Positions 8,226 through 21,886 of a DNA stretch of 35,791 nucleotides are shown piece after piece. The DNA comes from a virus. Its lineage: Duplodnaviria > Heunggongvirae > Uroviricota > Caudoviricetes. Under the pieces are notes generated by a model. The model was not told the DNA's origin. It searched no databases and saw only the letters and a program-made list of their open reading frames with translations. The stretch lies in IMG/VR virus record IMGVR_UViG_2534682162_000012. The stretch is one strand, 5' to 3'. The position numbers and the translations under genes were made by a program. Numbering within the stretch: position 1 is the stretch's first letter; every line of letters begins with the position of its first letter.

Positions 8226-9721
8226 TATGCAGACTCCTCTGAATACTGAAGACGGAACTGGTTAACCACAGCAAAAACACGCAACTGGTTAACATAGTCA
8301 GGCGGGAACAGCGTGTTCAGGCGGTTCGGATCGCTGGCATCACGCTCCACAACCAGGTACTGCTTAAACAGTTCGTAGTTTTCCACGATCCCCGCACGCT
8401 CAAGCTGACGGTAGGTTGCCAGCAGTTCCCCTTTGATTACCGCCGGGGTGACAATCGCCTGACCGGGACCAAAGCGGGTACCGTCGCTGGCAAGCTTGTG
8501 ACGCCCGTACTTACTGGTAATGACGGATTTCAGTTTGCGCAGTACATACGCACTGGTATGCAGCGTCTCGCTGTCGAGGTAGCTGTTATCCGCAACCCCG
8601 TAAGCATTTTTCCTGTACGTGGTGACATCACGCTGAATGCGCAGCACCCCGCTTTCGACATACGCCGTTGCCACGCCATGAGACAGCAGGGTCTGCTGCT
8701 CGGTCATCGTGAACCGTTTCCCCTTCGGCGCAGGCAGCATACCCACCAGCTCACCGGTCTGCGTGGGACGTGCCGGATCGTTGCGGATAAACACCGCTGC
8801 GCGGGCGGTACGGCTTGCCGCCAGCTCGTCGGCAGGCGTCTGGGTCTCTTTTTCGTACCCCGCCAGGGTGATGTGCTGCTGGTTAAACTGGTCACCTGCG
8901 TTCACCAGTTCTGACAGTGTGCCGGTCTTTGCCGTATACACATGACCATACAGCTGACGCGCATAGCTCCAGCGACCGCTGGTATCGTTCATCTCGGTCA
9001 CCAGCGTGTTAACGGAGGCCGTGTCGTTGAACGGCAGACCGATATAATCAAACGGCTCATCCGCCATTGCAGCCACCGCGCCGGTGAGAACCGGAGCGCC
9101 CGTTCCGGCGGTCCCCGTCGCCACGGCAATCTGTACGCCCGCTGGCAGCACTTCGCCCCCACCGAAGCCGTAGTAATTGAGGCTGACAGGAATTTCATTC
9201 CCGCAAAGCCCCTTATGACGCGCGGTCAGCGTGACAACACCAGCCGAAGATGAAGCTGTAAACGGCAGAGTCGGAACGGCATTGATGGCATCTTTGATAC
9301 TGCTGGCAATCGTCGTGACGTTATCGCCGTTGGTCACCGGTGCCTGCACGCGGGTACGTCCCACATAAACATTCACCGTGCCGGTTTCGGTTGCTGCTCC
9401 GGTCACCGTCAGCGTAACCGTTGCCGCCGCGCCTGTGGCTTCCGGAACGGCAATCACATACAGCTCGCCAAACGGGTCGGTCTGGCGATAAGCCTCGACC
9501 ATACGCGCCAGCTGACTTCCCACACCACAAATCTGGCGTGCATAGTCTGCCGACGGCATCAGCACCAGACTGTTGGCAACAATCTCTGCACCGTTATTGG
9601 CGTGACCAATCAGCAACGATGCCCCGCTGTCCTGTGCAGTATTCGCCGCCGAGTTATCCATTTCCGCATAAAACAGCGGAACCAGCGTATTCGACGGAAT
9701 GGTGTTAAAGCTTATCGTCAT
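8225..9721 (-). CDS. Tail sheath protein
   Basis: 498-aa ORF; size and position typical of contractile tail sheath. Confidence 0.75.
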   Translation of the reverse strand: MTISFNTIPSNTLVPLFYAEMDNSAANTAQDSGASLLIGHANNGAEIVANSLVLMPSADYARQICGVGSQLARMVEAYRQTDPFGELYVIAVPEATGAAATVTLTVTGAATETGTVNVYVGRTRVQAPVTNGDNVTTIASSIKDAINAVPTLPFTASSSAGVVTLTARHKGLCGNEIPVSLNYYGFGGGEVLPAGVQIAVATGTAGTGAPVLTGAVAAMADEPFDYIGLPFNDTASVNTLVTEMNDTSGRWSYARQLYGHVYTAKTGTLSELVNAGDQFNQQHITLAGYEKETQTPADELAASRTARAAVFIRNDPARPTQTGELVGMLPAPKGKRFTMTEQQTLLSHGVATAYVESGVLRIQRDVTTYRKNAYGVADNSYLDSETLHTSAYVLRKLKSVITSKYGRHKLASDGTRFGPGQAIVTPAVIKGELLATYRQLERAGIVENYELFKQYLVVERDASDPNRLNTLFPPDYVNQLRVFAVVNQFRLQYSEESA

Positions 9722-9883
9722 CGGTATTCACCTTTTTATTCACGCGCCGGATATCACCCGCTGCTTCACGGCGCAGCCAGTAGTTGTTCTCGTCAACATT
9801 TCGCCCTTCGGTGGGCAAAAGGTCACCGCGGGCAGGGTCAGGCACTGACCGCCCTTTAACAGGTTTCACAAACATGAAGATTC

Positions 9884-10444
9884 TCAGGAAGGAAGGGTTA
9901 TTTCGGTGTGATGTTCGATATCGCCGTCAGGCCCGTTACCGGGATCGAGATAATCAACATCAATCGCCAGCGTTCGCAGTTCATCCAGACTGTTCAGCTC
10001 ATCCTGCTGGCGGGTATCGTCTTCGGTCAGCTCGCTGATGACCGAAAAATCGAACTGATAAATCAGCTCATGACGATTCAGATCCAGCAGCGTGCCGCCG
10101 TCATAGGTAATCGGGTTACCGCACGCTTCCGGGTTCCAGCCCAGCAAGGCCTTAAAGAGCATCTGCCGGACATCGTCCACCACATCATACGAAGCAAACT
10201 GACCGCGCTCATCACGCCCGTTACTCAGTATGACAACCACGGAGAAGCCCTCTTTCAGCTCCTGCCAGTAGTCGGTCTGGCTTTTGTTTTCTCCCGGAGA
10301 GTCATCACCCGGTACCACATACGCCGCCGGGAGTCTCAGCTTTCCGACCTCCGGCAGATTTTTGAACTGTGCCGCGCCTGCCACCCGGTTTTCAAAATAC
10401 GGGCAGCGGGCACGCAGCGCAGCAATAACAGGCGTCAGTTTCAT
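9884..10444 (-). CDS. Tail completion/neck protein (Mu gp37-like, DUF1834-like)
   Basis: 186-aa ORF between head-completion genes and sheath; synteny. Confidence 0.45.
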   Translation of the reverse strand: MKLTPVIAALRARCPYFENRVAGAAQFKNLPEVGKLRLPAAYVVPGDDSPGENKSQTDYWQELKEGFSVVVILSNGRDERGQFASYDVVDDVRQMLFKALLGWNPEACGNPITYDGGTLLDLNRHELIYQFDFSVISELTEDDTRQQDELNSLDELRTLAIDVDYLDPGNGPDGDIEHHTEITLPS

Positions 10445-10947
10445 CTGCGTCGTCGCTCCGGCTTCAGTGATTTACGTAATTCCCGCGCCAGAAAATAGCG
10501 TGTCCAGCTGCGGTTCTTTTCAAGAGTTTCCACCATAAAGTTATTACGTGGAGCCAGCCGCCAGCCGCTGCCACCGGATGCACCACGATGATGACTACGA
10601 CGACGTTTTGCTCCTCCCCGGACACCAAAAAACAGAAACGCCGGATAGAAGTCACCAGAGATCATCCGGTTCCCCTTCCCGTTGCGCTGGTTAGGGGCAA
10701 TGCGTGTCATAAAACCGGCTCGCTTTTTACTGGCTCTCGGCACCATGTAACCAATCGAACGAGCCAGGCGTCCGGTCTGATAACCGGGGTTTTCACCCGG
10801 TGCCGACCGCGCACGGCGCATCACCAGCCGACGGGCATCACGCATATGACGCTGCCCAATCGTGACAAACGCCCGCCGGACACGGGCGCGGTTAAAGCGC
10901 ATCTCGGCGGGCTGCTGAACATCAACGTGAAAAAAGGGAGTCGCCAT
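10441..10947 (-). CDS. Tail-component protein (HK97 gp10-like)
   Basis: 168-aa basic ORF in the head-tail joining block; synteny-based. Confidence 0.45.
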   Translation of the reverse strand: MATPFFHVDVQQPAEMRFNRARVRRAFVTIGQRHMRDARRLVMRRARSAPGENPGYQTGRLARSIGYMVPRASKKRAGFMTRIAPNQRNGKGNRMISGDFYPAFLFFGVRGGAKRRRSHHRGASGGSGWRLAPRNNFMVETLEKNRSWTRYFLARELRKSLKPERRRR

Positions 10948-14943: not shown

Positions 14944-16673
14944 AGAATTAAGAGAGCATCGTCCGGATCAAGAGATGAGAGGAAATCGTCGGGTTCTTTG
15001 AGCATTGCCCGACCGATCGCCATAATCAGCGCAACCGCACCATCGATTTTGTTTTCCGCCTGCTCCTTGACAGGCTTCACCACATCATCGTTACCCGGAA
15101 TGGTTTTGCCGACCACGTTGCCGATACACCAGGTCATGATGGGATTGCCGTCATGATGAAAGCGCCCCGATTCAATCGCCGCTTCCAGCTCTTTCATCGG
15201 ATCGGACATGTTGGTGTAGTTCTGAATGATGGTGATGGGGTTCAGGTCTTCATCAGCAAGGTCATGCGACAGCCCGGTCGCCCCGAAGGGGTCGATGGGT
15301 GACTCGCTGACCGGGCTGATTTTGTTCGCCGCTTTGGCCTCCTCGAGGATGTAGCGATAATCCACCTCCGCACCAGCGGTAACGGTCAGAACGCCCATTT
15401 CCACCCATTTCTGAAAGCGTTCGGCTGTCCGGCGATCTTCATTTTTCTCGACGCTGTACACCGTGTCATACGGTACCCAGAAGCGCGGAGCCACACTGTA
15501 GTAATGCGTTTTACCGTCAATCTCGCGGGTATAAAGTCGCGCCATGCTGTTCATATCCAGCTTACGCGCCAGGTCAAAGGCCAGAATGCACGGCTGCCCC
15601 TCGAACTGCTCAAGGGTCAGTGATTTATCCTCGCAGCTCTGCCAGCTCACCAGGTTGAAATACGCCGAACGCGCCGACACCCAGATATTGAGGTGTTTTG
15701 TTTTAAAGACGTTTGCCAGACGGGCGTTATTTTTCGCACGCTGCTGCTGACTTAACAAAAATTCGCGATAAACCGACACGCCAATATTTGGATTGGCTTT
15801 TTCCAGCACCTGCGGGTCGGTCCAGTCGTCACCTTCATCAACGGTATAGATGATCCCGAACAGTTCATCGTTGGGTACCGAACCGTTGAGCATCTCGATA
15901 ACTTCCCGCCGCTTGTCGTAGCACGGCCCCTCAATGTTGTACCCGGCGGTGGTGATGGCCCACATCAGTGGCTGACGTCGCGCCCCCATCCCGGTAAGCA
16001 TCGTGGTATAAAGCGCATCGGTGGCGTGCTCGTGATATTCATCCACCACCGCACAGTGGGGTGATGAACCATCACCAGGGTTACCGATCAGCGGTTCAAA
16101 CCGCGCACCATCCTCCGGACGGTTCATGTTTGAGGCGTTAACCTCAATCCCGAACGCTTCCGTCAGCATGGGTGTGCGTTTACACATCAGTCGTGCCGGA
16201 CGAAAGACTTCCCATGCCTGTTTCTCCGTCGTGGCACCGGAATACACTTCCGCGCCGAACTCGTTATCACAGGCAAAACAATACAGGGCAACACCGGCAG
16301 AGATTGCCGATTTGCCGTTCTTACGGGGGATTTCGGTATACACCTCCCGGAAGCGGCGCAGCCGGGAGCCTTTATTGACCCAGCCAAACGCGCAGCAGAT
16401 CACAAAGAGCTGCCACGGCTCCAGCGTGATGGGCATCCGTTTGAATGCCCACTCACCCTTGGTGTGCGGCAACAGCTGAATAAATTTCGCGGCCCGTTCA
16501 GCCAGGTCCTTGTCGAAGCGGTAACGAAACGACTTACTTTTTTCCGCCATCAGGTCATCAAGATGGCGCTGGCAGGCCTGAATCACAAACTGGCAGGCCA
16601 CAATCTTTCCGCGCACGACATCACGGGCATACTGATTGGCTGCATTTACGTTGGGGTAAGATTTCCGGCTCAT
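14940..16673 (-). CDS. Terminase large subunit
   Basis: 577-aa ORF with ATPase N-domain and nuclease C-domain features; upstream of portal; start overlaps the small-subunit stop. Confidence 0.85.
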
Positions 16674-17173
16674 GATTCGATAATTTTCAGAAACGGGTTA
16701 GTGGCTTTCTTCTTCCCCGCCAGGCCAATCAGACGCTGGCGGCTGCTGGGGTCGAGTCCGAGCATTGCCCCCGTGCTGCTCATCTCGGACTCCTGTTCTT
16801 TCTTGGCGGTCAGCTCCGGATTTTTGACCATACCGCCCATTGCACCGGTGATGGTGTTGCCCTGGCTGGCAATATTTTTCACGGCACGTCGCCAGAACTC
16901 ATAGGCTACGCACCACCGCTCAAGCACCGCGAGGTCAGTCACGCACAGCAGGCCCTGACCGCAGAGTTCTTTGGTTGTCAGTTGCCACATGATCGTGGCG
17001 AGAGGGAGATTTTCTTCTGCGAACCACTCCGGTGGCTCAACGCCTTTGATGGGCGTAAAAACAGGTTCATCTTTGTTCAGGGCTCGCTTGCCGGGGTTTC
17101 CGGCTAGCGCCTTGCGCGCCGTTGGCTTGGGGCGACGCCCGGAACGCCCCGCCGTTCCAGCCATATGCGGCAC
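16670..17173 (-). CDS. Terminase small subunit (P27-like)
   Basis: 167-aa basic ORF immediately upstream of and overlapping the large subunit; AGGAG RBS. Confidence 0.6.
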
Positions 17174-17289
17174 TCCTGGTTAAATTTCATTTTTCGCGGG
17201 TATAAAAAAACGATGGGGCGGGCAGTCCGGAAGACGTCAGGTCACAGGGATTTGACCCGCCCCTCCCCACTGGCAGTTGAGAATTATTA

Positions 17290-17640
17290 TCACTTTAGCC
17301 GTTCACGGGCCGTCTTCGCCTTATGACACGGCCAGCACAGGCTCTGCAGATTGCAGTCTGCATCAGTGCCGCCATGCGCTTTAGGGATGATGTGGTCAAC
17401 GGTTTTCGCCTCACGCACCACACCGACACGCAGGCACAACTGACACAGGCCTTTGTCACGCTTGAGCACACGTTCACGGATAACATCCCATTTCGAACCA
17501 TAACCGCGCTGGTGTCGGGACTGGCCTGGCTTGTATTGCTTCCAGCCTTCGCTTTTGTGGCTTTCGCAGTAGCCTGACGGGTCAGTAGTGGTATGGCGGC
17601 AGCCGCGAACACGGCAGGCTTTTGGGGTTCGTTGTGGCAT
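17290..17640 (-). CDS. HNH endonuclease (packaging-associated)
   Basis: C-terminal CxxC...DHIIPKAHGG...N...CWPCH motif; start moved to the internal ATG at 17640 (MPQRTPKACRVRGC...); the N-terminal extension to 17829 is hydrophobic junk in AT-rich DNA. Confidence 0.8.
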   Translation of the reverse strand: MPQRTPKACRVRGCRHTTTDPSGYCESHKSEGWKQYKPGQSRHQRGYGSKWDVIRERVLKRDKGLCQLCLRVGVVREAKTVDHIIPKAHGGTDADCNLQSLCWPCHKAKTARERLK

Positions 17641-17761
17641 TAAAAAACTCGATTTGATGATGTGCATAGGATTCACAAAAAGCTTGCCCCAGCTACCGTT
17701 AAAAATCACAAACTTCCTATCATGCACCACGCCAATAACGGCAATAATTAGGAGCTGTAAA

Positions 17762-17971
17762 ATGAATAATGCAAATAACAAACTTTCAACCTTACCAACA
17801 CAAGAAGATCTGGAATATTTGATTTGCATTGCAGGAGGAGTGTTCGAGGATCTAAGGAATCCTTTTATTTACAAAAATCCAGAGAATATAAGGCGATTGT
17901 TAAACCGAAAAGGGGTTTCTGAAATAGTTCGCCTCTCTTACAGATTCAACAATACACCATCTTGTTACTAA
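17762..17971 (+). CDS. Hypothetical small protein (69 aa), accessory
   Basis: ATG with AGGAG RBS 8 nt upstream; AT-rich by eye; opposite strand to the flanking phage genes. Confidence 0.4.
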   Translation: MNNANNKLSTLPTQEDLEYLICIAGGVFEDLRNPFIYKNPENIRRLLNRKGVSEIVRLSYRFNNTPSCY

Positions 17972-18143
17972 CCAGTGGCAGGCACTTACTAAGTGCCTGC
18001 CTTAACCTGCTATTGCTACCTCTCGGCTACTTCAGCCTTTTCTTTTTACTATACGATTATCATTAACATTTTGATTTATTTTAGTTTATGTGCTTAAGCT
18101 TTGTGTGATAGCTATTACTTTTGTTTATAGAGAGGTATTTCCA

Positions 18144-18485
18144 GTGTCTGACGAAGTAGAATCATTACTCAATACAATGCTTAATTGTGACGCATTTTAT
18201 CATGAAGATGGTAAAGTTAGTGGAATCGCTAAGTTAGCTGTAACCAAAGGATTTGATAGTCTTTCTGCACCGCAAAAGAGGGTATTGCAACCTTTCCTTT
18301 CTCACCCATGTGGTGGTGTTAGAAATCCAGGCGGGCACCATAACGGTTGCTCTAAGGTTATCTCTGGCTATGAGCTAGAAGAAGCTTATAACTTACAAGG
18401 TTACTATGGAGATCTCTTATGTCAAAACTGCCGAGAAGAAAGCGACGGTTATGAAATAGAAAGAGAGAGATTCATGCAGGACTAA
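18144..18485 (+). CDS. Hypothetical Cys/His-rich small protein (113 aa), accessory
   Basis: GTG start with AGAGAGG RBS; contains HPCGG...HHNGC...CQNC, suggesting metal binding; AT-rich by eye. Confidence 0.45.
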   Translation: MSDEVESLLNTMLNCDAFYHEDGKVSGIAKLAVTKGFDSLSAPQKRVLQPFLSHPCGGVRNPGGHHNGCSKVISGYELEEAYNLQGYYGDLLCQNCREESDGYEIERERFMQD

Positions 18486-18661
18486 TCATTAACAGGCACC
18501 CAAAGTGCCTGTTTATAGCCGACTCTTCGAGCTGAAGGACGCCGTTCTCTTCTGATTCAGAATAAGCGACCAGTAGTAGTATACCCAGTAGCGTTTCTTT
18601 CCATCTTCAGCTTCAAATGCAGGGATTTAGTGAAAAGCACCTTTCTTATGATAAAAACTCG

Positions 18662-18919
18662 CTATTGTGAGAATCGTGATTGTTCAATCCGTCTGATGCT
18701 AGCCTTGTCAAGGTTACATTGACCCAACGCCGATAACAGACTAACGTTCAAATCTAGGCTGCCCTCAAAAGTCAGCGGCTCAGGAATAACTGGTTGCGAG
18801 GTTTCAGCGATCAGATTCGTCGGGAGTGGTACTGCCGGAACTTGTACGTAAACTGTCCGCGTACTTCCGCAACCGCTCAGCAGCGGCAGCAGGCACAAGG
18901 CGTGCAGCACAATCATCAT
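18662..18919 (-). CDS. Outer-membrane spanin Rz1-like lipoprotein
   Basis: Alternate frame overlapping the 3' part of the Rz-like gene; start at MMIVLHALCLLPLLSGCGS with lipobox LLSGC; Pro-rich mature region. Confidence 0.6.
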   Translation of the reverse strand: MMIVLHALCLLPLLSGCGSTRTVYVQVPAVPLPTNLIAETSQPVIPEPLTFEGSLDLNVSLLSALGQCNLDKASIRRIEQSRFSQ

Positions 18920-19196
18920 CCGCAACAGCCACTTTGATATCTTTCTGGGTTCTCTGTGACTCCAGTGCGATCTGCTGTTTTGCATGCTGGTTAACCTCTA
19001 TAACTGTATTGACGATTTGCAGTGATTGCAGGACGTTACGGGTAATGGCTGTTGCAGATTCAGCATTTTGTACAGCCTCATCAGCACGTTTCTTTTCGTG
19101 CTGATATTTGCTGTAGTAGTGGTTGGCAGACCAGATGAAAGAACCGATGACAGTAAAGAAGAATGCAGCGATAACCAGCTTATAGCTCAACTTCAT
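18804..19196 (-). CDS. Inner-membrane spanin Rz-like
   Basis: 130-aa ORF with N-terminal TM helix then coiled-coil periplasmic domain; directly downstream of endolysin. Confidence 0.7.
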   Translation of the reverse strand: MKLSYKLVIAAFFFTVIGSFIWSANHYYSKYQHEKKRADEAVQNAESATAITRNVLQSLQIVNTVIEVNQHAKQQIALESQRTQKDIKVAVADDDCAARLVPAAAAERLRKYADSLRTSSGSTTPDESDR

Positions 19197-20271: not shown

Positions 20272-21294
20272 ATGGCAAAATTAAATGCTAGCGAAAGACT
20301 CGTTACTCATCATAGTCTGACCATTGACACAAAGTTTAGAACCAAGGCAACACAAGAGGTAAAAGCCCAGTGTATATGTCCTGTTCCGGAAATGTACATG
20401 CTTGCCCCATTGATTGTTAAACAAAAGGGACTCGTTCATTCATATGATTCTGGGAATATTGTAGTTACTCTCCAAGATGTACAACTTTATCCTTTACTTC
20501 CAGATAACTCACCCACGCATATTGTCCTTCTTATTAATAGTGTTGATAAAAATGGAAGTACTACCGTTGTAAAAAATACAAATACTAATGAACGCGTTGA
20601 AATCCAACCAAAATATGAACAAGGTGAAGGCTATGAAGTTTCTACCTATGTTGTCATATCATTAAATGGAAATAAAAGAACCTATGATATGATTTGTACA
20701 TCTACCCCAGGTGTATCTACGGCCCGGTTAAATAGTTTTTTAGACAAAATTCTCTTTGAAGTGGCGAAAGACAATGAAGACTTATTTACCGCAAAACATC
20801 CAACTAACGTTATTTCTGCAACATCAAAAAAAGAAGTAAAAATACGATACAAACCAATATTTGAATTTACAGGAATGTTAGACAAGGAGCTTTTTAATAA
20901 AATAAGCCAAAAAGGATTATCAGATGTCATATTAGTCAAGGATCAATTCGGAACAATTAATGCTCCTGATGTTAATTCACCTTACATTCCGACTGAAAGT
21001 ACATTAAAATTACTTCCAAATCATGGTGACAATGTTATTGGATGGATTAAAAATGTAGCATCTCATTTCAATAAAAAAATGAATGGTGGTTATGATAAAT
21101 TAAAGGTTAAATTCCAAGATCCTGAAACAAATAAACCAAGGCAGGTTGATTTCAAAACCTCAAACATCAATCTTAATAATTTAGAAAAAACATTTATTAA
21201 GAAAAGCATTATCGATAACTTTAATTCGCGCCTGAAGGATTCATATGTTAAAATTGAACTAGAGTTTGTTGTGAAAATGATAGATTTGATGTGA
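20272..21294 (+). CDS. Hypothetical soluble protein (340 aa), accessory cassette gene 1
   Basis: Long ORF in AT-rich DNA on the strand opposite to flanking Q and holin; RBS-like GGATGA upstream; no recognisable catalytic motif. Confidence 0.7.
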   Translation: MAKLNASERLVTHHSLTIDTKFRTKATQEVKAQCICPVPEMYMLAPLIVKQKGLVHSYDSGNIVVTLQDVQLYPLLPDNSPTHIVLLINSVDKNGSTTVVKNTNTNERVEIQPKYEQGEGYEVSTYVVISLNGNKRTYDMICTSTPGVSTARLNSFLDKILFEVAKDNEDLFTAKHPTNVISATSKKEVKIRYKPIFEFTGMLDKELFNKISQKGLSDVILVKDQFGTINAPDVNSPYIPTESTLKLLPNHGDNVIGWIKNVASHFNKKMNGGYDKLKVKFQDPETNKPRQVDFKTSNINLNNLEKTFIKKSIIDNFNSRLKDSYVKIELEFVVKMIDLM

Positions 21295-21301
21295 GGTTAT
21301 T

Positions 21302-21886
21302 ATGCCAATACTTTCAGTTTTCTCTCATCTAGGCAAGCCGTTTGGATATCTTTTTATTAAAGGTATTAGCGGCAAAGCTGCATATGATTGGGTAGCACCA
21401 ATTCTACTTACTTCTATCACAGCAGTACTTTTCATTCTATTAAAAATCCCTGTCAAAGATTTATTTGATGACAATGGTTTCATTAAATCAATCGTTTCAT
21501 TTATCTCTAACCTACCAGGGTTTTATATTGCCGCTCTGGCCGCCATAGCAACTTTCAATAGAGCTGAGATTGATTTACCATTGATTAGCAATGAAAGAAA
21601 TGCCTCTATTGAAATAAAAGTAACAAAAGAAAATGGAAAAGTAGTAAATTCAGAGGAGGTTCTGACCAGACGCTTATTTCTTTGCATGCTATTCTCTTTT
21701 TTAACAGCATTAAGCATTGTTATAATAATACTTAATGCTATATTTTCACCATTAATCAATGTCTATCAAAACAGTATTGTTTTAATGGTTTATACTGTTG
21801 TATTTACTTTCCTCGTTTGGCAACTCTTAGTATCAACTTTCTTTGGATTATATTATCTCGGAAACAGAATTCATATGAATTATTAA
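21302..21886 (+). CDS. Integral membrane protein with four predicted TM helices (194 aa), accessory cassette gene 2
   Basis: Starts 8 nt after gene 1 stop; four hydrophobic segments of about 20 residues each. Confidence 0.7.
   Translation: MPILSVFSHLGKPFGYLFIKGISGKAAYDWVAPILLTSITAVLFILLKIPVKDLFDDNGFIKSIVSFISNLPGFYIAALAAIATFNRAEIDLPLISNERNASIEIKVTKENGKVVNSEEVLTRRLFLCMLFSFLTALSIVIIILNAIFSPLINVYQNSIVLMVYTVVFTFLVWQLLVSTFFGLYYLGNRIHMNY

Follow-up and report, generated by a model that had tools for sequence, protein, structure and literature searches.

Two antisense genes at the lysis/packaging junction

The window analysed here is a stretch of 35,791 nucleotides of DNA from a tailed phage of the class Caudoviricetes (IMG/VR record IMGVR_UViG_2534682162_000012), and our subject is a pair of small genes within it, termed ORF-A and ORF-B (ORF, open reading frame), which lie on the plus strand, opposite to the late genes, between the lysis cassette and the HNH and terminase genes (Table 1). 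A preliminary description of this DNA, made from the sequence alone, had placed the two frames in AT-rich DNA, credited the 69-aa frame with a strong AGGAG ribosome-binding site, and likened the site to that of the moron bor in phage lambda. All of this is borne out: the ribosome-binding site precedes the ATG by 7 nt, position and orientation are those of bor, and other genes are present at the same place in related prophages, namely one for a DUF6979 protein in SfI and one for a DUF2441 protein in E. coli DA33137. The G+C content of the region is 0.35-0.44 as against 0.54-0.58 in its flanks (0.35-0.37 over positions 17700-18299, and 0.54-0.58 over 15000-17549), with 0.35-0.41 in the DNA that holds the two frames. 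The complete 1-kb segment was found in 5 of 5426 complete E. coli genomes, in 242 of which the edge in the HNH gene is matched, and at the DNA level in no isolated phage. With its variable presence at a fixed site between similar phages and a base composition unlike that of the flanking phage genes, the segment 17641-18661 is a variable moron slot at the lysis/packaging junction.

ORF-A is left unannotated by the NCBI Prokaryotic Genome Annotation Pipeline (PGAP) in NZ_CP075852, and matches PHROG 22590 at 1e-40. It showed no match to Pfam, NCBIfam or PADLOC (the latter at E <= 0.1), and scans of viral and metagenome contigs with degenerate patterns for its relatives returned the same prophage only; ORF-A is rare and tied to this HNH lineage. 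Its sole diverged homologue (locus L006, 67% identity), which likewise stands head-to-head with an HNH gene, has kept the open frame, the AGGAG site and the terminal hairpin. Over the invariant central peptide IYKNPENIRRLLNR.GVSEIV the differences are mostly synonymous, with one conservative K-to-R exchange, and the substitutions at the three codon positions number 15, 11 and 24, with a ratio of non-synonymous to synonymous substitution rates (dN/dS) of 0.33 in this one available pair. The conservation of both frames, the absence of which had been named among the grounds for refutation, is accompanied by purifying selection (dN/dS of 0.03-0.07 for ORF-B, see below), and therefore ORF-A and ORF-B are genes rather than chance ORFs. 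One could argue that ORF-A is no gene at all, and that the conserved DNA 5' of the HNH gene is a regulatory or structural DNA or RNA element, given the missing PGAP annotation, the existence of only two sequence clusters, the poor AlphaFold2 model and a longer ORF that overlaps it on the opposite strand. This is very unlikely in the face of the frame and AGGAG site retained at 67% identity, the mostly synonymous changes in the invariant peptide, the codon-position counts and dN/dS, the PHROG match, and an Rfam search of positions 17100-18800 that revealed no RNA family. On this comparative evidence we take ORF-A as a real gene omitted by PGAP; with low confidence, its basic product may bind DNA.

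The preliminary description had also suggested that the two genes may form a toxin-antitoxin-like or host-interaction module. They are adjacent on the same strand, and within the E. coli lineage they travel jointly (identical copies of ORF-A and ORF-B occur in 335 and 380 contigs, respectively), as would be expected of a toxin-antitoxin-like unit or of an effector with its immunity gene. Against this, a gap of 172 nt, which contains the strong ORF-A hairpin, separates them, and either gene can occur in the absence of the other. Klebsiella prophages have a 77%-identical ORF-B, without ORF-A, at the same site between an HNH gene and the spanin genes; ORF-A is likewise missing beside ORF-B in about 70 other viral loci, and ORF-B homologues occur as single-gene integron cassettes. 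In L006, an unrelated XRE-type gene comes after the ORF-A homologue instead of ORF-B, and the DNA similarity between the window and L006 runs from the HNH gene through ORF-A and ends just past the hairpin. The tight, co-occurring two-gene operon typical of type II toxin-antitoxin systems is thus lacking, as is homology to known toxin or antitoxin families (Pfam, NCBIfam, PADLOC), and neither protein matches a catalogued anti-phage defence component (PADLOC-DB 2.0, E <= 0.1). Because the hairpins are separate, each gene occurs without the other and no toxin, antitoxin or defence profile is matched, the toxin-antitoxin proposal is not supported, and a common module of any such kind appears highly improbable. 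As judged from the distribution of their sequences, ORF-A and ORF-B are unrelated single-gene cassettes acquired separately, and they are probably transcribed separately; a host-interaction role for the two genes is possible as a prediction.

The second slot gene of L006 (L006:1022-1543, plus strand) encodes a 173-aa protein of the XRE type with a helix-turn-helix (HTH) domain. Two copies of the palindrome TTCCTGTCAGGAA lie 5' of it (region 930-990) and look like candidate operators for autoregulation.

The prophage in the window is of the SfI/SfV/e14-like type, integrated beside icd, and an identical prophage resides in a few strains, E. coli S19-651 among them. To the left of the HNH gene, on the minus strand, lie a P27-type terS and then terL, and to the right, beyond Rz1 and Rz, a GH24 lysozyme and a lambda-family holin. 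The genome record of SfI terminates at the cos site according to its authors (PMC3636060), and its right end aligns with the window up to ~17215, which puts ORF-A and ORF-B at a distance of 0.55-1.27 kb from the right end of the DNA in the virion, with their transcription directed inward. In the S19-651 copy the major capsid gene (L001:14157-15362, NZ_CP075852.1) is annotated as a pseudogene with an internal stop, and this copy may be defective. A second AT-rich island on the plus strand (20272-21880) separates the Q antiterminator from the holin; it contains ORFs of 340 aa (20272-21294) and then 194 aa (L001:23703-24287), both hypothetical according to PGAP, and both components of the PADLOC candidate system PDC-M53 are matched there (A at 1.6e-32, B at 1.8e-54). 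An OB-fold gene on the opposite strand amid the tail genes (L001:7399-7845) looks like another moron.

Table 1. Features of the moron slot and its surroundings in the window, and a plasmid-borne homologue of ORF-B (coordinates of the last row refer to the plasmid)
Feature	Position	Strand	Basis and remarks
ORF-A, 69-aa basic helical protein (pI 8.7), PHROG 22590	17762..17971	+	ATG to TAA
AGGAG ribosome-binding site of ORF-A	17750..17754	+	sequence reading; TAGGAG in L006
Perfect 11-bp stem-loop closing the ORF-A cassette	17977..18001	+	inverted repeat; RNAfold -21.3 kcal/mol; kept in L006
ORF-B, 113-aa acidic Cys4 protein (C56, C69, C93, C96), PHROG 12178	18144..18485	+	GTG to TAA; WP_001361772.1 'hypothetical protein'
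9-bp stem-loop directly 3' of the ORF-B stop, putative terminator, weak T-run	18491..18513	+	inverted repeat; RNAfold -14.5 to -18.8 kcal/mol; z = -2.9
Variable cargo slot, AT-rich, two antisense cassettes	17641..18661	.	HNH start codon to Rz1 stop codon
HNH endonuclease, first packaging-module gene, head-to-head with ORF-A	17290..17640	-	Pfam HNH 1.1e-14; PGAP
Rz1 (18662-18985) and Rz (18804-19196), end of lysis cassette, right border of slot	18662..19196	-	Rz1-like LysC; weak DUF2570 match
Approximate SfI-type cos end, right end of virion DNA	17205..17225	.	SfI record alignment
IncX1 plasmid pHP2 (L196, NZ_MH121702.1)	8989-9327 and 9706-10680	same strand	ORF-B homologue, Abi gene

The ORF-B family in prophages, plasmids and integrons

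The mechanical ORF that contains ORF-B begins at position 18090, and the GTG at 18144 is preferred as the start because all homologues begin at that position. The family comprises 12 clusters at 90% identity and about 67 at 50%, nearly all of them single-domain proteins of ~110 aa, from Enterobacterales, Pseudomonas, Vibrio, Marinobacter, Halomonas and Ferrimonas, with a few metagenome-assembled genomes outside Gammaproteobacteria. Of the Cys/His cluster that had been reported in this protein (HPCGG...HHNGC...CQNC), all is present in ORF-B and only the cysteines are conserved in the family: C56 and C93 are invariant, C69 and C96 nearly so (spacing C-x12-C-x23-C-x2-C), and the histidines vary. 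Purifying selection is strong in well-diverged pairs (dN/dS 0.03-0.07), with values of 0.18-0.27 in two close pairs that show little divergence. All 63 distinct sequences are acidic (pI 4.1-5.25, net charge -7 to -17, median -12). ORF-B is a soluble, cytoplasmic, strongly acidic protein with four near-invariant cysteines, and its AlphaFold2 model is confident, with a predicted local distance difference test (pLDDT) of 91.6 and a predicted template modelling score (pTM) of 0.80: three N-terminal helices are followed by a short beta pair that bears C56 and C69, and by a long C-terminal helix that starts at C93xxC96; the predicted fold is thus a helical one, with the four cysteines as a brace. 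Comparison of the model with the PDB and BFVD revealed no fold match, and searches of Pfam, NCBIfam and PADLOC (E <= 0.1) with ORF-B, as well as of Pfam with 48 family members, returned no significant family, the PHROGs matched being families of unknown function only. The preliminary description had recognised neither product, and indeed neither matches a named family; the structure prediction it had proposed as a check succeeded for ORF-B, albeit without a fold match, and gave only a weak model for ORF-A (pLDDT 64).

ORF-B as a degenerate HNH nuclease was rejected. This assignment would call for an HNH profile match with a conserved catalytic histidine, and for a beta-beta-alpha-metal fold, and ORF-B shows no such match; the homologue P0107 from Citrobacter amalonaticus is named 'HNH endonuclease' in one UniRef entry, without support from profile or histidine. 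A profile match to a 3172-aa protein (P0062) is probably spurious, being a repeat match to an astacin-containing protein.

Analysis of the genomic neighborhoods, in which genes of the related loci were called with a simple longest-ORF routine, reveals that ORF-B is usually alone on its strand: among 92 distinct contexts, 46 have both larger neighbours on the opposite strand, and 70 have the 5' neighbour there. In many unrelated prophages ORF-B is inserted antisense, with its 5' end towards the first gene for packaging; among 85 contexts this gene is a Terminase_2 terS in 31, in 11 it encodes a phage metallopeptidase and precedes a DUF2280 terS, and in others it is an HNH gene. Spanin or other late genes lie on the 3' side of ORF-B; in L012, L030 and L082 it lies between terS and terL. 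The G+C content of ORF-B is below that of its flanks in 66 of 78 loci, and 32 of 62 distinct loci have a hairpin (z < -2) after its stop codon, often with a T-run behind the hairpin. In the Terminase_2 group (L035-L071) the start codons of terS and ORF-B are 27 nt apart and head-to-head, so that terS must contain the ORF-B promoter and any ORF-B mRNA must cover the ribosome-binding site of terS in antisense orientation, and lysogenic and late transcription could interfere with each other. Among 50,697 records of isolated phages the family occurs in one.

In 57 loci ORF-B is abutted by a small gene of the late strand, phrog_6581. This highly conserved gene of ~65-71 aa is present in at least 543 IMG/VR loci (e.g. 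L058:5390-5605 and L015:5372-5599, both on the minus strand); in many enterobacterial prophages, with any type of terminase, no other late-strand gene separates it from the packaging genes. The window has no copy. Our survey of the slot covers the best 80 of these loci. In most relatives the packaging gene begins 7-34 nt after phrog_6581 and the slot is empty, and in a minority ORF-B or other antisense genes lie in between. We considered phrog_6581 as an immunity partner of ORF-B and rejected it: of the 80 loci retrieved, 69 have this gene but lack ORF-B, and here it mostly lies directly next to the packaging gene. An immunity partner for ORF-B was not found. Other antisense cargo between phrog_6581 and the packaging gene is present in L130, L136, L152, L170, L172, L187 and L193. 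None of these genes (87, 145, 74, 192, ~180 and ~178 aa) matches Pfam, and the content of the slot therefore provides no functional hint; the ~180-aa protein of L187 contains a stretch RNKRSH that, judged by eye, resembles the HEPN Rx4-6H motif. At the junction between Rz and the HNH gene or terS, several prophage lineages have a general hotspot of insertion.

Outside prophages, the family is present on 36 plasmids, 32 of them conjugative, where it lies in accessory regions. In about 30 IncX1 conjugative plasmids the homologue (WP_052921317.1) lies 380 nt 5' of a gene annotated as 'Abi family protein' on the same strand (e.g. pHP2, Table 1), which may reflect a functional pairing or one inherited arrangement. 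On an IncU plasmid the homologue comes after the gene of a large HTH protein, and on a Pseudomonas plasmid after a RelE/antidote pair. A third setting is the integron, for which we looked for GTTRRRY on the 5' side and an attC site (RYYYAAC...GTTRRRY) on the 3' side, within reach of IntI. L107 displays the order IntI, attI, GTTAGGC, ORF-B homologue and a 63-bp attC (GCCTAAC...GTTAGGC), its integrase matching IntI4 (PDB 2A3V) at 5e-93, and the same GTTAGGC/GCCTAAC flanks are found in L103, L105, L108, L109 and L110. The copy in the window was tried as an attC-flanked cassette and rejected, since no complementary core sites surround it. Because the integron cassettes and the solitary prophage inserts carry nothing else, the gene content of these elements indicates that ORF-B functions as a single gene.

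Likely role of ORF-B and competing explanations

The explanation that we favour, with confidence a little better than even, is that the slot contains two independent morons and that ORF-B is a stand-alone, protein-binding agent in the conflict between mobile elements and their hosts. ORF-A and ORF-B would be separately acquired single-gene cassettes, placed antisense to the late operon in the classic moron arrangement, and ORF-B would be made in the lysogen from a weak promoter of its own. Its four cysteines would hold a structural metal, probably zinc, and the protein would bind another protein rather than DNA, for which, and against DNA binding, its uniform acidity argues. As a stand-alone inhibitor or modulator it would act between mobile elements and host; the range of carriers (prophages, conjugative plasmids and integrons), as well as the Abi and toxin-antitoxin genes next to it on plasmids, agree with action in conflicts that involve mobile elements, phages and hosts. 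Superinfection exclusion or defence would rank first among such roles, counter-defence second, and modulation of host physiology third. That the family is, more specifically, a new one-gene effector of defence or counter-defence, with a Cys4 fold not seen before, which shields its carrier by binding to and blocking a conserved protein of competing phages or, alternatively, one of host defence, is a tentative proposal that we hold with distinctly less confidence.

Several observations weigh against the favoured explanation. Neither homology nor fold searches back any function for ORF-B, and scans for consensus sigma-70 promoters, one of them relaxed, gave nothing convincing 5' of either gene. 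Neither hairpin in the window has a clear or strong T-run, the sequences of ORF-A form only two clusters, and its AlphaFold2 model, helical, is too weak to use. Finally, the persistent adjacency of ORF-B to terminase genes could be due to a role in or near packaging instead of an insertion-prone site.

The last point leads to the alternative that ORF-B acts in the packaging or late-gene control of its own phage, its protein binding terminase or its mRNA acting as antisense on the start region of terS. The head-to-head placement of ORF-B and the first gene for packaging in most of its prophage settings, the 27-nt spacing and overlapping mRNA of the Terminase_2 group, and the three loci in which ORF-B separates terS from terL would all be explained; but the slot is empty in most close relatives, the packaging genes next to ORF-B are of at least four unrelated types, copies reside on conjugative plasmids and integrons without packaging genes, and isolated phages have yielded a single copy. 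The empty slots and the plasmid and integron copies make an own-phage packaging role unlikely, and we regard the alternative as a whole as quite improbable. A reading in which ORF-B binds DNA in the manner of zinc-finger or HTH proteins and regulates the transcription of phage or host genes is likewise improbable, if slightly less so: every member is strongly acidic (the median charge is given above), none of 48 members significantly matches an HTH or zinc-finger family, and no conserved upstream operator could be seen by eye across lineages, no motif search having been run. It is also conceivable, though unlikely, that ORF-A and ORF-B are genes of the leading end, within the first 1.3 kb to enter the cell, and that, being transcribed in the direction of entry, they are made first, to serve in counter-defence or takeover. 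Phages with lambda-type cos sites inject the right end, packaged last, ahead of the rest, and with cos at ~17215 the two genes would be close to that end and point inward; ORF-B is moreover small and acidic like known DNA-mimic anti-restriction proteins, and its family is common to phages and conjugative plasmids. On the other hand, lambda bor, a gene with the same position and orientation, is a moron expressed in the lysogen, the IncX1 copy lies beside the Abi gene in a maintenance or accessory region rather than an obvious leading region, a sedentary integron cassette would have little use for counter-defence, and no promoter was identified.

Morons in bor-like slots are already known, as are both families as PHROGs of unknown function. 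What appears to be new is the independence of the two genes, the sharing of ORF-B among prophages, plasmids and integrons, and a confident model without detectable fold match; a literature search for WP_001361772 found no paper. Prophage cargo slots, accessory regions of plasmids and integron cassettes are recurrent sources of new phage-defence and counter-defence genes, and a single small gene that occurs in all three settings must work alone in many hosts. With its strong constraint and its confident, unmatched structure, ORF-B is a cheap and well-defined candidate for a phage-challenge screen, and if the proposal is true, the family would be a one-gene defence or counter-defence system absent from current catalogues. 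For annotation, ORF-A and ORF-B should not be treated as a pair, and ORF-A should be taken as real even though PGAP omits it.

Comparison with known systems

The closest positional parallel is lambda bor, which shares with the present genes the slot between Rz/Rz1 and cos, the antisense orientation to the late operon, the optional presence and the deviant base composition. The products differ, Bor being an outer-membrane lipoprotein with a serum-resistance phenotype, whereas ORF-A and ORF-B are soluble and cytoplasmic and bear no sequence relation to it. With regard to the protein itself, the C4 zinc-finger proteins of the TraR/DksA type are small and acidic, occur on conjugative plasmids and in lambdoid prophages, and act on a host protein, RNA polymerase, by binding to it. 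ORF-B resembles them as a small, acidic four-cysteine protein found on conjugative plasmids and in prophages; they have two CxxC pairs, however, whereas ORF-B has one and shows no fold match. As there is only one CxxC and none of 48 members matches zf-dskA_traR, we rejected ORF-B as a DksA/TraR relative. The C-terminal half of ORF-B (C69...C93xxC96, with the CxxC at the N-terminus of a helix) weakly matches LIM domains, modules of the treble-clef type that bind proteins, with E-values that are not significant (0.07 against the PDB; 0.008 against Pfam, in 2 of 48 members), and the resemblance is one of cysteine spacing only.

Two further systems offer parallels of function and of context. TERi/TerI of Listeria comK prophages blocks packaging by invading phages (bioRxiv 10.1101/2025.02.27.640495). 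Like ORF-B, it is encoded by a small gene antisense within a lytic module, at a locus where unrelated small genes alternate; the TerI gene is transcribed in lysogeny. Unlike ORF-B, to which it has no sequence similarity, it is a 65-aa protein, is encoded in the early module, belongs to a phage of a Gram-positive host and depends on two genes for self-immunity. The likeness would be a functional analogy only. Some integron cassettes of previously unknown function encode phage defence (bioRxiv 10.1101/2024.07.02.601719). The ORF-B of the window differs from a cassette in that it resides in a prophage, without attC-like flanks, while its homologues in integrons have precisely the cassette form, each a single promoterless gene with GTTAGGC on the 5' side and an attC that begins with GCCTAAC on the 3' side.
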